A DNA stretch of 44,098 bases from a virus (lineage: Duplodnaviria > Caudoviricetes). Below are positions 28,541 through 41,520 of the stretch, piece by piece. Made by a program: the position numbers and the translations under genes. The stretch is from the IMG/VR virus record IMGVR_UViG_3300028586_000770, positions 1 to 44,098 of that record, one strand, 5' to 3'. Positions within the stretch are counted from its first letter, which is position 1. Each line of letters starts with the position of its first letter. The notes under the pieces were generated by a model, which was given only the letters and a program-made list of their open reading frames with translations, was not told where the DNA came from and searched no databases.

Positions 28541-28576
28541 TGTCCTATTAAAAAAATCAAATCAGATCTATTTTTG
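28541..28576 (+). promoter_or_regulatory. Phage-specific promoter TGTCCTA-N21-TATTTTTG
   Basis: Conserved spacing, perfect -7 box; no ORF before the next terminator. Confidence 0.75.
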
Positions 28577-28580
28577 AAGT

Positions 28581-28680
28581 CTCTTTTACATACACCAATA
28601 CTTTTGCCATGAAGTAATTATTTTTCTCTTTGTTGTTTTAAATTTTCCCGCCCTGGCCTGTAAGCCGGGGCGGGTTTTTT
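28581..28680 (+). ncRNA. Putative ~100-nt late small RNA
   Basis: Between the promoter and the strong terminator CCCGCCCTGGC-CTGTAA-GCCGGGGCGGG-T6 (28647-28680); only an ATG-AAG-TAA minigene inside. Confidence 0.55.
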
Positions 28681-29577: not shown

Positions 29578-29614
29578 CGTCAAATTGGTTTAACATAGAT
29601 CACACTATTTAGGC

Positions 29615-29645
29615 AAAACCCCGCGCTGGCGGGGTTTAGTTTTTT
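29615..29645 (+). terminator. Intrinsic terminator (duplicated at 33029-33059)
   Basis: AAAACCCCGC-loop-GCGGGGTTTAGTTTTT. Confidence 0.8.
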
Positions 29646-30093: not shown

Positions 30094-30215
30094 TACAAAT
30101 AATAGAAATCGTTTATTTAGAGGCGCTAAAACTGAGATACTATAACTTAGGGAAACTATGTAGTAATTTGACATAATCTTATAAAAGATATTAGGCTTAG
30201 GGCTTTAGTTTTGCA

Positions 30216-30284
30216 ATATCTTAACAACATAAGGTGTGGTATCCCATTTTTATGATACTCTCTCTCTAACGAGAGAGTTTTTTT
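30216..30284 (+). ncRNA. Putative sRNA 1 of tandem array
   Basis: TAGTTTTG box 30206-30213; 5' hairpin ATATCTTA/TAAGGTGT; TGGT; terminator CTCTCTC/GAGAGAG + T7. Confidence 0.6.
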
Positions 30285-30342
30285 ATGTAAGTTTCTGAAC
30301 CTATTATGTAATTTTACTTACTTAATTACAAGTAGATTTATC

Positions 30343-30417
30343 ATATCTACGTTGAAGCAGAAAATGTAGATATTGGTCCATTTCCGCCCTCTCCAGTCAC
30401 AGAGGAGAGGGTTTTTT
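30343..30417 (+). ncRNA. Putative sRNA 2 of tandem array
   Basis: TAGATTTA box 30333-30340; hairpin ATATCTAC/GTAGATAT; TGGTCCATTT; terminator CCCTCTCC/GGAGAGGG + T6. Confidence 0.6.
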
Positions 30418-30476
30418 ATAACTCATATGAGCAATGATGTAAAATGTTTTAACCACAATAATTGTAATTTTACCAA

Positions 30477-30543
30477 ACTACATTTTAGAGAGGTGTAGTA
30501 CTGGTTAGTATTATTCTTCCCTCCCTTACACCGGGGAGGGTTT
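30477..30543 (+). ncRNA. Putative sRNA 3 of tandem array
   Basis: TAATTTTA box 30465-30472; hairpin ACTACA/TGTAGT; TGGTTAG; terminator CCCTCCC/GGGAGGG + TTT. Confidence 0.55.
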
Positions 30544-30760
30544 ATCTTTATCCAACACTCAATGTATACCAAATGGCGGCATTAGCAAAATTTCCTCTGC
30601 ATTACTATGTCATCTACTAATTATATTCATAAAAGTAGATCTGAAACAAAGAATAAATAGATAGTCTTTCAATTTCATAAATTAATAGAAAGCGAAGCAT
30701 TATTGAAAATTATTACTAAATTAGGCAAAGTTCTAATTAGCAAATTGTAATAAATAGACT

Positions 30761-32991: not shown

Positions 32992-33169
32992 TTTTCAGTT
33001 TTTTATATATAGATCACATTTTTTAAGCAAAACCCCGCACTTGGCGGGGTTTAGTTTTTACGTTAGCTACTATTATTCGCTACCGAGTGCTGCAGGTTAA
33101 AAAGTCCGAATTTTATACAGGAATTAAAAAATTAATATTGGATCCTCCTGCGGGGTGGGTTCGGTTATT

Positions 33170-38435: not shown

Positions 38436-39029
38436 TTACTGTATTACTTTATGTTTCATGGCCTTGCGCACAAAGCCGGCTTTGTTTTTAACTCCTGCAG
38501 CTATAAATAGGTTTTGCTTATGGGTATTAAGCGTGCTGTGTGCCATATTAAGATCGTTAGCAATAGCTTTATCCGGCTTATCGCTTGCTAATGCCTGGCT
38601 AATTTTTACCTGGTGCGGTGTAAGCTTGTGGCCATTTAGCATAATGCATTTACTTTTCCATGCAAGGCAGCGGCAGTTGGCGCTACACCTAAAGTTTTCT
38701 GAAGGGGCGGCAGCACCGTTGGCTAAAAAATCGGGAGTGCTATCAGCATCACCATACATGCAAAAAGCAAATTCCTCCAGGGCAGCATCATGATCCATAT
38801 CGCGCAGGTCGTGCATAGCTGCAGGATCATTAAGCATGAGCTCAAAAATTTCAGCTTTTTGCGCCGGGTTAATTTGTGCAAATGGTATAGTGCGCCCGTT
38901 GCTCAGTGCAAATACCTTACGGGTTTCGCGAATGCCAAACAGTTCTGTACGATGATCGCCGGGAATTAAACCGGCAGGCAGTGAATGCACTTGCAAATCT
39001 TGTTTTTTTGTTTTACATTTGTCTTTCAT
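38436..39029 (-). CDS. LuxR-type HTH transcriptional regulator
   Basis: C-terminal LTPHQVKISQALASDKPDKAIANDLNMAHSTLNTHKQNL...GVKNK; Cys cluster before the HTH. Confidence 0.85.
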   Translation of the reverse strand: MKDKCKTKKQDLQVHSLPAGLIPGDHRTELFGIRETRKVFALSNGRTIPFAQINPAQKAEIFELMLNDPAAMHDLRDMDHDAALEEFAFCMYGDADSTPDFLANGAAAPSENFRCSANCRCLAWKSKCIMLNGHKLTPHQVKISQALASDKPDKAIANDLNMAHSTLNTHKQNLFIAAGVKNKAGFVRKAMKHKVIQ

Positions 39030-39087
39030 AAATTCTTAGTTAAAGGGATTTACTTTTAAGAACCTGATGTTCGCGCATCAGGTTTTT

Positions 39088-39729
39088 TTAATTTAAAGGA
39101 GTTACTGTGCAGGCTTTGCAATCACATTTACCGATGCTGCCAGGTAAATGAAATGATATTTGCAGGCGTTTACTATGATCCGCCTTGTGTTTGCTTTTGT
39201 GATCTTTTATGTTTTCTGCAGTTGTTTCTCGAACTAAATCAAGGATTTCTTTAGATGGAAGTCCATTGAATTTATCAATAAACTTATCTTGGAAATCATG
39301 GCCTACAGCTTTTATAACTTCTGAAATTGAACCGGCAAAAAATTCAGATGTGCGCTGTTTATCATAATGTAGGGTAATTGTATTTTGAGGATTAAAATGT
39401 CTTCGTCTCAAAAGATCAGTAAAGCTTTGCCCTGCGTTAGGAAAAGGCAATGGGGGAACTTCGATGCCTTCTTTACGCAAATCGTCTGCTAACTCCTGCA
39501 AAATGTCAAAGAAACCACCGCTTCTGGGTTTAAAATCAAAAGGCTTGCCTCTTTCGGCAGTCTCTTCAGCCTTTGTTTCATCTGCTTTTGCCGTTTGTGC
39601 TTTGTCTACCTGTTCCTGGTTAAAAGTCTCAAAAGGTTTAAGTTTACCTAATATATTGGCCCTTACATCACCAAATTTTAAATTCTCGTCATTTAAGACT
39701 GCTTCTAAATCTTCAATTTTTACGTACAT
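39088..39729 (-). CDS. Early hypothetical protein with C-terminal Cys cluster (CDCKAC)
   Basis: 213 aa; followed by hairpin AACCTGATG/CATCAGGTT (39061-39088). Confidence 0.65.
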   Translation of the reverse strand: MYVKIEDLEAVLNDENLKFGDVRANILGKLKPFETFNQEQVDKAQTAKADETKAEETAERGKPFDFKPRSGGFFDILQELADDLRKEGIEVPPLPFPNAGQSFTDLLRRRHFNPQNTITLHYDKQRTSEFFAGSISEVIKAVGHDFQDKFIDKFNGLPSKEILDLVRETTAENIKDHKSKHKADHSKRLQISFHLPGSIGKCDCKACTVTPLN

Positions 39730-39760
39730 AATATGGTTGTTTTAATTTTTCTATATTTGC

Positions 39761-39833
39761 AGTTCTCATTGTAAATTGATATTGGTTTAACAATTTTGAG
39801 AACTAACCCGGCAGAGCATGTGCCGGGTTTTTT
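39761..39833 (+). ncRNA. Putative sRNA of cassette B1
   Basis: TATATTTG 39752-39759; hairpin AGTTCTCA/TGAGAACT with ATTGGTTTAA near the loop; terminator AACCCGGCA/TGCCGGGTT + Ts. Confidence 0.7.
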
Positions 39834-39916
39834 ACTTTGTAAATGTTTTCTGTCATATGTCATAATTGATTAGGCCAAGTACATCTTTAGATTTGTCAGG
39901 TAAAACCCCAACTTTA

Positions 39917-40213
39917 ATGGATCAATCTGCAATCAATGATTTTAGAGATAACTGCAAAACTGTTTACAATTACTATCGCGTTAAAATGATCCGGAATACT
40001 CCATTCCTTCAGCCTAAATCAACCGTTAGCAGCCAACATTTCATTATTTTTTTCGCCTATCTTGAGGCAAGCATTTCCGACATGGATAAACTTGCAAATC
40101 CTCATTTATCTGATAATCCTCATTTACAGGACCAGCTTGATGCTGTAATTTATTCCTACATTATTAAGTACAATTCGATTTCTGCATTGCTGAGAAGGCG
40201 CTTTAAAAAATAG
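39917..40213 (+). CDS. Small helical protein, paralog B1 (98 aa)
   Basis: Own TAGATTTG box at 39888-39895 favours ATG 39917; similar to 40404-40676. Confidence 0.72.
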   Translation: MDQSAINDFRDNCKTVYNYYRVKMIRNTPFLQPKSTVSSQHFIIFFAYLEASISDMDKLANPHLSDNPHLQDQLDAVIYSYIIKYNSISALLRRRFKK

Positions 40214-40268
40214 TTTCAATTAAACTCTACTTTATTTATTCAATTTTTAATTATTGCTATATTTGCCG

Positions 40269-40344
40269 CACTCATACGTTATAGTAAAAGAGTTAGTCAC
40301 CTTTTCATTGAGTATACGCCCAGCAATTAACCGCTGGGTTTTTT
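40269..40344 (+). ncRNA. Putative sRNA of cassette B2
   Basis: TATATTTG 40258-40265; hairpin ACTCA/TGAGT; terminator CCCAGC/GCTGGG + T6. Confidence 0.65.
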
Positions 40345-40403
40345 ATAACTATTTGTGCATTATATGTAAGCTTAACTTAATAATTTAAGCTTACTTTTAT
40401 AAC

Positions 40404-40676
40404 ATGTTTACAGACAAGAAAACCATCGAATTCTTTACGGATAGGTGCCTCATCATTTACAGCGCCTGGAAACTGGAAATTGTCAAAATACAACAGCGGG
40501 ATTTATCATATTACAATGAAAATAAAAGTGTCATTGTGTTTAAATGTAAAGAGGCAGCTCGTGATAAAATGGATGTTGTTGCAGAAGAAATTTTGACTAC
40601 TAAACCCCATCTTGAAGACTCTCTTATTACTATTATGCACTGCTATTTGAAAAGATTTGATTTGGCATCTAAATAA
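40404..40676 (+). CDS. Small helical protein, paralog B2 (90 aa)
   Basis: Shares F.D.C...Y and EA....MD..A...L...PHL.D.L with B1. Confidence 0.72.
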   Translation: MFTDKKTIEFFTDRCLIIYSAWKLEIVKIQQRDLSYYNENKSVIVFKCKEAARDKMDVVAEEILTTKPHLEDSLITIMHCYLKRFDLASK

Positions 40677-40694
40677 ACTACCGATATCTAAAAC

Positions 40695-40955
40695 TTAGTC
40701 GGGTGGTATAGGCACGCCCAGTTCTGGAGCGTCAATAAATATTCTCTTAACATTTTCTGTATACACCTCAAAAATAACTTCCTCAACTTCCGGCGCATGG
40801 CGTTCCCCACCCAGGATAAGGCTCAAATGCTGCTTGTTGTGTGGTGTGCCGTTCCTGTTAACAATACCCCGTTCATTGAGTTTCGCCTTAATTACATCAT
40901 AATAGTTTGAGCCTAATCCTCTCTTTAACTTTTCAGGTACTCCATATGGTATCAT
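40695..40955 (-). CDS. Cro-like HTH protein
   Basis: 86 aa, KQHLSLILGGERH recognition-helix pattern; divergent from the repressor. Confidence 0.6.
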   Translation of the reverse strand: MIPYGVPEKLKRGLGSNYYDVIKAKLNERGIVNRNGTPHNKQHLSLILGGERHAPEVEEVIFEVYTENVKRIFIDAPELGVPIPPD

Positions 40956-41096
40956 GTGATTTAATTTAAATTTTTATTCATACAATAAAGCATTGACGTT
41001 CAGTTAATGGCATACTTTTCCCGCATCGTTAAAAACGATACATAACTGCTATTTACTGTTACACTTATTTGACTATCTTTGTTTTTAAGTACACAA

Positions 41097-41150
41097 CAAA
41101 TCTAACACAAATTTGTGTAAGTTTCACAAAACTGTGCAAATATTTTACAC
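41097..41150. promoter_or_regulatory. Lysis/lysogeny switch: leftward -7 box and tandem CACA-N4-TGTG operators
   Basis: Minus-strand TAGATTTG at 41097-41104; perfect palindrome ACACAAATTTGTGT 41105-41118; CACAAAACTGTG 41125-41136. Confidence 0.7.
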
Positions 41151-41154
41151 AGAA

Positions 41155-41520
41155 ATGGGAGAAATTGGGGATAGGCTGAATTTATTTATTGATAATCAGC
41201 AGATTAGTTTTAACGATTTAGGAGAAAAAATTGGTGTAGCCGGCAAATCTTTGAAAGAAATGTCCCAAAATAAGAGGCCACTTGGAGGTAATGTGCTCAA
41301 AAAATTGGGTGAGGTTTACCCAGATTTGAGCCTTAATTGGCTTTTTTTAGGTGTAGGTGATATGTATCTACACAAAAATGAGCCACAGAAAAATGTGCAA
41401 ATGGTAGCTGAGCCGACGGTTCATCTGTATGATACTTTGGATCCAGTGGAAGAAATGTTCTTAAAGTATCTGGATAGACCCATGGTACAGGAAAAAATTA
41501 AATCGTTTTTAAAGAAGTAA
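41155..41520 (+). CDS. CI-like XRE-family repressor (no S24 peptidase domain)
   Basis: IGDRL...ISFNDLGEKIGV HTH and YPDLSLNWLFLGVGDM motif; ATG 41155 preferred. Confidence 0.82.
   Translation: MGEIGDRLNLFIDNQQISFNDLGEKIGVAGKSLKEMSQNKRPLGGNVLKKLGEVYPDLSLNWLFLGVGDMYLHKNEPQKNVQMVAEPTVHLYDTLDPVEEMFLKYLDRPMVQEKIKSFLKK

Follow-up and report, generated by a model that had tools for sequence, protein, structure and literature searches.

The IMG/VR record IMGVR_UViG_3300028586_000770, a soil Bacteroidota provirus of 44,098 bases that was analysed whole and is called the window here, contains two consecutive units of one layout in the regulatory region at its right end. Each comprises a promoter-like box, a short predicted non-coding RNA with its own terminator and a gene for a small helical protein (RNA1 and ORF1 in unit 1, RNA2 and ORF2 in unit 2). 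The gene order of the region is LuxR/GerE-type gene, 213-residue ORFan, the two units, cro-like gene and helix-turn-helix (HTH) repressor-like gene. Both units, on the + strand, thus sit between the cro-like gene and the distal leftward early genes and, as the sequence-only reading that first drew attention to them had stated, oppose the cro-like gene (40695–40955) and the leftward genes. We tentatively favour the view, at a probability of about 0.4, that the RNAs brake the cro-to-LuxR transcript, in cis-antisense or by convergent transcription, and that the small proteins are separately expressed accessory factors. Unit 1 is solid; unit 2 is weaker.

The promoter-like boxes of the window are of the Bacteroidota type, TAnnTTTG. 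Perfect TATATTTG boxes, claimed at the outset for both RNAs, are present on the + strand as the predicted promoters P1 (39752–39759) and P2 (40258–40265, from a box scan). P1 is identical in two related loci, L010 and L011, which were found in metagenome contigs with a three-protein alignment. Counting both strands, the window holds four perfect TATATTTG boxes, P1 and P2 among them; a hairpin and a T-run come after three of these. P1 and P2 share a 31-nt block, TTTTAATT.TT.CTATATTTGC.G..CTCAT, that occurs nowhere else in the window with up to 3 mismatches and in none of 100 shuffles. Taken by itself, the TAnnTTTG motif shows no enrichment across the window (54 occurrences vs 58.3 expected); it lies 40–125 nt upstream of 7 of the 52 candidate terminators, where about 2.7 would be expected (binomial P ~0.016, from a loose scan and a crude test). 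Intrinsic terminators at 39805–39833 and 40318–40344 stand between RNA and protein gene on the same strand. The box is found at -12 to -5 in Flavobacterium psychrophilum (PMC9723704), and transferring this position to the window gives predicted start sites at about 39764 for RNA1, 40270 for RNA2 and 39900 for the ORF1 mRNA.

RNA1 (39764–39833, +) is a predicted non-coding RNA of ~70 nt composed of a 5' hairpin, the linker TAA and a terminator (CCCGGCA/TGCCGGG followed by T6). The stem of the 5' hairpin is formed by GTTCTCA (39762–68) and TGAGAAC (39797–803), and its loop contains ATTGGTTTA. A 75-nt stretch of unit 1 folds at -26.5 kcal/mol (z -4.6), a value equalled by none of 200 shuffles. 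Relative to L010 and L011, three of the seven outer-stem pairs have changed on both sides and still pair (GTTCTCA/TGAGAAC vs GCTCTTC/GAAGAGC), as has one inner pair. The promoter box, the 9-nt loop ATTGGTTTA, the linker and the foot of the terminator are conserved in these loci, and the spacer between the RNA1 terminator and the ORF1 box has diverged. The conservation is not neutral, because synonymous sites in ORF1 are saturated over the same distance (dS >2) and neutral DNA should have been randomised. In L010 the terminator includes U–G pairs, which would be A–C on the other strand, and the + strand folds at -32.9 kcal/mol vs -20.0 kcal/mol for its complement. No conserved open reading frame (ORF) crosses RNA1 on either strand; a 47-residue minus-strand ORF at 39720–39863 was considered as coding and set aside, as it is not kept in L010.

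RNA2 (40270–40344, +) is a predicted non-coding RNA of ~75 nt with a weak 5' domain and a terminator (CCCAGC/GCTGGG followed by T6) that is also the first terminator downstream of ORF1. Its fold has a z of -2.6, owed mostly to the terminator. The hairpin closed by CTCA/TGAG that the sequence-only reading had drawn in both units, together with a terminator, is borne out by unit 1 and by both terminators, whereas the corresponding pairing in RNA2 (5 bp closing a 33-nt loop) lies outside the best fold. No orthologue of RNA2 or ORF2 was found among the relatives, and unit 2 rests on the window alone. The families of Rfam 15, among them phage C4 and CRISPR-DR, gave no match in the window at gathering score, and the best sub-threshold + strand match within 39600–41150 was ncr1575, at 24 bits vs 60. 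As no CRISPR-DR family is among the Rfam matches, we discarded the idea that the RNAs mimic CRISPR repeats as an RNA anti-CRISPR.

ORF1 (39917–40213, +) encodes a 98-residue protein of no known family, with a pI of 9.3 and a basic RRRFKK tail. Its predicted promoter P(ORF1), the -7 box TAGATTTG at 39888–39895 (+), lies 22 nt before the ATG and would give a leader of 17 nt. A TAnnTTTG box stands at the same distance in L010 and L011 (TATTTTTG and TATATTTG, respectively) amid diverged flanks, giving three variants in all. The ORF1 orthologues of these loci are 58% and 57% identical to the window protein, with dN/dS of 0.09 and 0.14 and dS >2; these ratios identify ORF1 as a real gene under purifying selection. 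ORF2 (40404–40676, +) encodes a 90-residue, near-neutral protein (pI 7.7), and its stop codon lies 18 nt from that of the convergent cro-like gene, with no terminator predicted between them. The two proteins were rightly described as diverged paralogues: they share 25% identity (E 3e-11), the peptides quoted for them are present, and a two-sequence profile recovers both. The further claim of a separate promoter for each protein holds for ORF1 and fails for ORF2, where no perfect -7 box was found between terminator and ATG; the best candidate there is TACTTTTA at 40392–99, with one mismatch.

AlphaFold2 (AF2) models ORF1 as an all-helical three-helix bundle (pLDDT 80), with one of the five models confident. 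The maximum mean Kyte–Doolittle score over 19 residues is 1.05 for ORF1 and 0.73 for ORF2, and the grand averages of hydropathy (GRAVY) are -0.4 and -0.2. Both proteins are, as modelled, soluble three-helix bundles. In sequence searches the family is nearly an orphan. HMMER, run over 1.84 billion representatives, returned four matches: ORF1 and ORF2 themselves, P0003 (100 residues, 39% identical to ORF1) and P0004, a fragment of 43 residues. A word-indexed protein search with ORF1 and ORF2 found only the queries, a search of PDB sequences gave 0 hits, and the protein Atlas offered no usable match. Foldseek against PDB and BFVD found nothing at E up to 0.001, and VIA listed generic three-helix bundles with Z up to 10.4, which does not reach the noise bar set for helical bundles. 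Pfam (E up to 5) and PADLOC (E up to 1) gave no match, ToxN-like, defence-related or other, for ORF1 or ORF2. A 13.8-bit PADLOC match of P0003 to Cas11a was judged to be noise.

Related viral loci were found with the LuxR-type protein, and L010 proved to be identical with the phage L004/G001. Between RNA0 (a further predicted RNA, described below) or the LuxR-type gene and the cro-like gene, L010 and L011 have a single orthologous cassette each, with no second cassette and no 213-residue gene. The cassette has the order TATATTTG, hairpin, terminator, TAnnTTTG box 22 nt before the ATG, and ORF1 orthologue. A unit of TATATTTG and terminator that ends 60–90 nt before the start codon therefore accompanies four of the four ORF1-family genes with readable DNA (ORF1 and ORF2 of the window, G001/L010 and L011), a count that represents only three independent cassettes. 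In seven other relatives (L014–L020) the cro-like gene is the immediate neighbour of RNA0 and the LuxR-type gene, and in L021 and L022 only leftward ORFs occur between the LuxR-type and cro-like genes. An ORF1-family gene is missing from all nine of these relatives (L014–L022), and so is a second + strand unit between those two genes. The absence of the cassette there and from a contig of a second DNA run (run X2, below), and its single occurrence in L010 and L011, mark it as an insertion into the early operon, present as two tandem copies in the window.

The proposal that RNA unit and protein gene were duplicated and retained together is supported, insofar as the two move as one cassette, by this adjacency, by the lack of a second unit in the nine relatives without the protein, by the compensatory changes in RNA1 and by the purifying selection on ORF1. 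The check suggested with that proposal, whether homologues of the protein carry an upstream promoter, hairpin and terminator, found the box and the terminator wherever the DNA could be read (4/4).

Other searches for relatives added little. Viral contigs searched with profile A2 and with the 213-residue protein yielded nothing useful, and a single 17-residue match to the cro-like protein in viral contigs was dismissed as spurious. Genome contigs searched with profile A4 and P0003, and viral contigs searched with P0003, gave no match. The RNA1 DNA pattern and profile A9 found only G001 among viral contigs.

The region is a mosaic. L010 shares 89% identity with the window in the LuxR-type gene and L011 shares 89% in the repressor gene, and the repressor region of L010 is altogether different. 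RNA1 (~62%), ORF1 (58%) and cro (47%) form one diverged block, flanked on both sides by sequence of 89% identity. In the slot between RNA0 and P1 there is the 213-residue gene in the window, a leftward gene for ~100 residues of membrane-like character in L011 and no gene in L010; where a gene is present (window and L011) it begins 23–26 nt from the P1 box. A diverged contig of 4,753 bases from run X2, labelled leaf litter metagenome, joins positions 39104 and 41032 with ends ~85% alike, and represents a relative without, or with a replacement of, the 213-residue gene, both cassettes and cro.

RNA0 (39014–39089, +) is a predicted two-hairpin RNA of 64 nt with a terminator at its end and its box, TACATTTG, inside codons 2–5 of the LuxR-type gene. 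It begins at the start codon of that gene and is antisense to the start codon and leader. RNA0 occurs in 11 of the 13 related loci (the window, L010 at 2741–2819, and L014–L022); it is not at that place in L024 and was not found in L023, which offers only 414 bases upstream. The CAAA..TA portion of the box is conserved even where the encoded residues vary. All 11 copies combine a 5' hairpin with a terminator and fold at -20 to -25 kcal/mol, vs -9 to -15 kcal/mol for the opposite strand (7–15 kcal/mol more stable), and four terminator pairs have changed on both sides. In several relatives the RNA0 terminator overlaps the 3' end of the cro-like gene. In L010, RNA1 lies ~20 nt past the end of RNA0.

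We read RNA1 and RNA2 as further brakes because RNA0 is conserved antisense to the distal regulator and RNA1 has the same size, shape and strand. In the mechanism that we propose, the leftward transcript from the predicted early promoter (the TAGATTTG box at 41097–41104, -, identified by box scan) would read through the cassettes, over ~1 kb of antisense DNA, and would meet P(ORF1), P1, P2 and P0, the predicted promoter of RNA0, head-on. RNA1 and RNA2 would be produced as + strand RNAs from P1 and P2, and their pairing, together with head-on promoter firing, would reduce expression of the 213-residue and LuxR-type genes. P1, P2 and P(ORF1) would be active in the lysogen while the cro promoter is shut. 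The ORF1 and ORF2 transcripts would also continue into cro as antisense, since no terminator separates the convergent genes. The 213-residue and LuxR-type genes most likely depend on the transcript that crosses the cassettes, because between 39030 and 41104 the minus strand offers only two TAnnTTTG boxes, the one at 41097–41104 and one within cro (40769–76), and from cro to the 213-residue gene no intrinsic terminator is predicted on that strand.

Several observations weigh against this proposal. RNA1 covers no start codon and lies 35–105 nt upstream of the ATG of the 213-residue gene, and its covariation amounts to one comparison of two sequences, because L010 and L011 are identical in RNA1. 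RNA2 has a weak 5' domain and an opposite strand that folds comparably (-17.6 vs -19.0 kcal/mol), and it lies between two + strand genes, where its antisense target would be untranslated read-through RNA. The promoters are known here from consensus matches only. The public runs that hold the phage are two, both of DNA and both labelled leaf litter metagenome, one of them probably the origin of the record, and the RNAs are predicted from sequence alone. Finally, the brake reading accounts for the adjacency of RNA and protein in four of four cassettes only through common descent.

That every cassette pairs the protein gene with an RNA unit keeps a functional partnership alive. The small helical protein would bind, stabilise or be neutralised by its cognate RNA, with the paralogous pairs diverged in specificity; the logic could be that of FinP/FinO, of a helper such as that of RNA I/Rom, or of a non-canonical RNA–antitoxin pair. 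We regard such a pair as rather unlikely. In its favour are the lack of an RNA1-like unit in the nine relatives that lack the protein, the retention of both parts despite divergence to 25% protein identity, the divergence of RNA1, ORF1 and cro as one block between well-conserved flanks, and the basic character of ORF1, with its RRRFKK tail. The near-neutral ORF2 fits less well, adjacency in three cassettes could reflect common descent, and neither protein matches an RNA-binding family or fold in Pfam, PADLOC, PDB sequences, Foldseek or VIA, which show generic three-helix bundles at most.

RNA0 also argues against the partnership, as does RNA3, a minus-strand unit in which an extended box, CTATATTTGCG, is followed by a near-perfect hairpin of ~100 nt and T8 (15125 to 15010; -60.4 kcal/mol, z -12.3). 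Both are of the same design and have no small protein gene downstream on the same strand, so the RNA is not tied to a protein by design. RNA3, which lies between the gene for a 115-residue protein and a DNA methyltransferase gene, has an orthologue in G001 (L025, about 1900–2015, -). Its promoter region differs at two positions over ~55 nt, and the hairpin is retained (-50.3 kcal/mol, z -7.4), although both partners have been exchanged in five of its inner pairs.

Further candidate + strand units, each a TAnnTTTG-like box followed by a strong terminator, occur in long intergenic stretches at 28569–28680, 30206–30283, ~30334–30417 and ~30470–30550. The gap at 30.1–30.76 kb may thus contain a cluster of small RNA genes, two or three in number, but some of the units may be the terminators of upstream genes. 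Near-identical terminator hairpins (CAAAACCCCGC...GCGGGGTTTAG plus a T-run) were also noted at 29614–29639 and 33028–33054 (+), 3.4 kb apart.

FinP has two stem-loops and FinO is helical; RNA I and Rom are likewise an RNA and its protein helper. FinP is an antisense RNA that acts with the FinO protein as co-factor against the leader of the mRNA for the activator TraJ (PMC3105414), and ProQ/FinO domains recognise terminator hairpins (PMC9674577). RNA0 matches the logic of FinP closely, as it is antisense to the leader of a transcription regulator. Unlike FinO, ORF1 and ORF2 have no ProQ/FinO match, appear to be plain three-helix bundles and stand beside RNA1 and RNA2 rather than RNA0. Neither ProQ/FinO nor Rop domains were matched in Pfam or PDB sequences, and Foldseek and VIA again gave generic bundles only (best Z 10.4). 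The best model for a partnership would be FinP/FinO or RNA I/Rom, rather than a toxin–antitoxin pair. In its boldest form the partnership would be a mobile, duplicating module: an antisense RNA of ~70 nt and its cognate small three-helix protein, acting jointly by FinP/FinO-like or RNA I/Rom-like logic and unrelated in sequence to either, would gate the cro-to-LuxR early operon of temperate Bacteroidota phages, the two paralogous pairs of the window having separate specificities. We consider this doubtful. The Bacteroidota are not known to possess Hfq or ProQ.

The sequence-only reading had proposed an RNA antitoxin and toxin, an immunity system or an anti-defence system, and the evidence does not favour any of these. 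A type I toxin is a small hydrophobic membrane peptide. In type III systems such as ToxIN an endoribonuclease serves as the toxin and the antitoxin RNA consists of multiple repeats (PMC8860590). The cassettes resemble ToxIN in their same-strand order of promoter, non-coding RNA, intrinsic terminator and protein gene, and differ from it in having no repeats, no ToxN-like match and all-helical proteins of 90–98 residues. TRF at a minimum score of 30 found no tandem arrays in 39700–40720, and there is no tandem unit inside RNA1 or RNA2. We therefore rejected type III systems (ToxIN, CptIN and TenpIN), since RNA repeats and a match to a ToxN/AbiQ-type endoribonuclease are both lacking. Type I was rejected because complementarity between cognate RNA and mRNA does not exceed that of shuffles, RNA and ORF lie on the same strand without overlap, and the proteins have no hydrophobic segment. 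With repeats, ToxN match, hydrophobic segment and cognate complementarity all absent, the defining features of both types are missing, save for the shared order of promoter, RNA, terminator and gene; the proteins instead appear as soluble three-helix bundles without a PADLOC or Pfam match.

Duplexes between each RNA and its cognate mRNA, scored against mononucleotide shuffles, gave z of -0.5, -1.25 and +1.9 for start regions and +1.06, -0.86 and +1.1 for whole mRNAs. The non-cognate pair of RNA1 and ORF2 mRNA reached z -2.2 (1/100 shuffles), which we judged to be chance after five comparisons. In this pair, which gave the sole RNA–mRNA signal seen, the 5' arm and loop of RNA1 (39763–39781) are complementary at 16 of 19 positions to a coding stretch of ORF2 (40504–40522).

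The conserved loop raises an alternative that involves neither the neighbouring proteins nor the leftward transcript, in which the RNAs would be trans-acting, whether as decoys or through base pairing, with targets in the host or elsewhere in the phage. The 9-nt ATTGGTTTA has been kept in an otherwise diverged hairpin, and several more units of promoter, hairpin and terminator occur at unrelated places in the phage. Exact complements of the RNA1 loop occur at chance level, however, and a duplex scan of the start regions of the window and G001 found no shared target, with the proviso that these energies are crude, duplexfold allowing very large internal loops. We consider action in trans unlikely.

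RNA1 and RNA2 could also be leaders, P1 and P2 being the main promoters of ORF1 and ORF2, the terminators conditional attenuators and the short RNA a by-product. A precedent is the lambdoid PR'-tR' arrangement, where a constitutive promoter terminated immediately downstream gives the short RNA StxS (PMC7547250). Promoter, terminator and gene do follow one another on the same strand in both units, a layout resembling PR'-tR' and StxS (PMC7547250), and no perfect promoter was found for ORF2 alone. The likeness extends to a short terminated RNA upstream of same-strand genes. In the window, however, no antiterminator was recognised, ORF1 has its own predicted promoter, and the units are opposed to the early operon rather than placed at the head of the late one. 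ORF1 does not need the RNA as a leader because its own -7 box is conserved, as three TAnnTTTG variants. The folds contain no alternative antiterminator pairing, PHROGs scans of 54 window ORFs, extended to Pfam for 24 of these, recognised no Q-like or other antiterminator, and neither RNA0 nor RNA3 is followed by a same-strand gene that it could lead. The leader explanation, in which some factor or pairing with the leftward transcript would bring about read-through, suits ORF2 and suits ORF1 poorly, and seems to us improbable.

The closest parallels to the brakes that we favour are the cis-antisense RNAs OOP and aQ of lambda and sar of P22, all temperate phages, of which sar and OOP are 68–77 nt long (PMC12197685). 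Like these, the predicted RNAs of the window are short, have their own predicted promoters and terminators, and would oppose an early or regulatory mRNA in the immunity or early region. RNA0 would target the regulator just after cro, by analogy with OOP, which targets cII. Unlike OOP, aQ and sar, they show no sequence or Rfam relation to those RNAs, have Bacteroidota-type promoters and occur as several units per phage; RNA1 and RNA2 are moreover accompanied by a small protein gene on the same strand and overlap neither the start codon nor the coding end of a leftward gene. The protein genes also recall morons, accessory prophage genes with their own promoter (PMC7067206). Like morons, they are small accessory genes between core genes, have their own promoter, vary among relatives and lie on the strand of the repressor gene. 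They differ from morons in the separate terminated RNA unit upstream of each and in being set against the early operon.

The remainder of the window has an integrase at the left end and genes for tape-measure-like, head protease, large terminase, holin, endolysin and methyltransferase/Mom-like proteins. A blastn search of phage GenBank records found nothing resembling the regulatory region. Its distal early gene encodes the 197-residue LuxR/GerE-type regulator (38436–39029, -; Pfam GerE 1.7e-6; phrog_10300 2.4e-16). The 213-residue ORFan (39088–39729, -) starts 23 nt from P1; it has no counterpart in L010, and L011 has the membrane-like ORF of ~100 residues in its stead. The cro-like gene, of 86 residues and on the minus strand, is the first of the leftward early operon and divergent from the HTH repressor gene. 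It has no family match in Pfam or PHROGs, its relatives share 29–48% identity, and its name rests on position and relatives only. The HTH repressor-like gene (41155–41520, +; phrog_8 1.4e-6; phrog_2328 3.5e-4) is on the same strand as the cassettes. Its predicted promoter box, TATCTTTG (41074–81, +), faces the predicted cro promoter box, TAGATTTG. The predicted repressor and cro starts lie ~6 nt apart (41086 and 41092), and therefore the 5' ends of both transcripts would overlap. A perfect 14-bp palindrome, ACACAAATTTGTGT (41105–41118), beside these boxes is a likely operator.

Antisense RNAs in phage immunity regions are classical, and accessory genes with their own promoters are common. Knowledge of phage regulatory RNAs comes almost entirely from enterobacterial phages and a handful of other models. 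A term search of a 2025 review of phage-derived small RNAs gave 0 occurrences of 'Bacteroid' and of 'Flavobacter' (PMC12197685), and full-text literature searches listed no paper on such phages. What is new here is the phylum, the number of such units per phage and the cassette itself, a structured RNA gene with an orphan three-helix protein gene, present twice in tandem. The significance is bounded by very few relatives and by RNAs that are predictions from sequence. If the RNAs are made, the locus would offer a compact, testable model for the timing or locking of early genes in temperate Bacteroidota phages, and would reveal whether a phage itself supplies a helper protein for its RNA.

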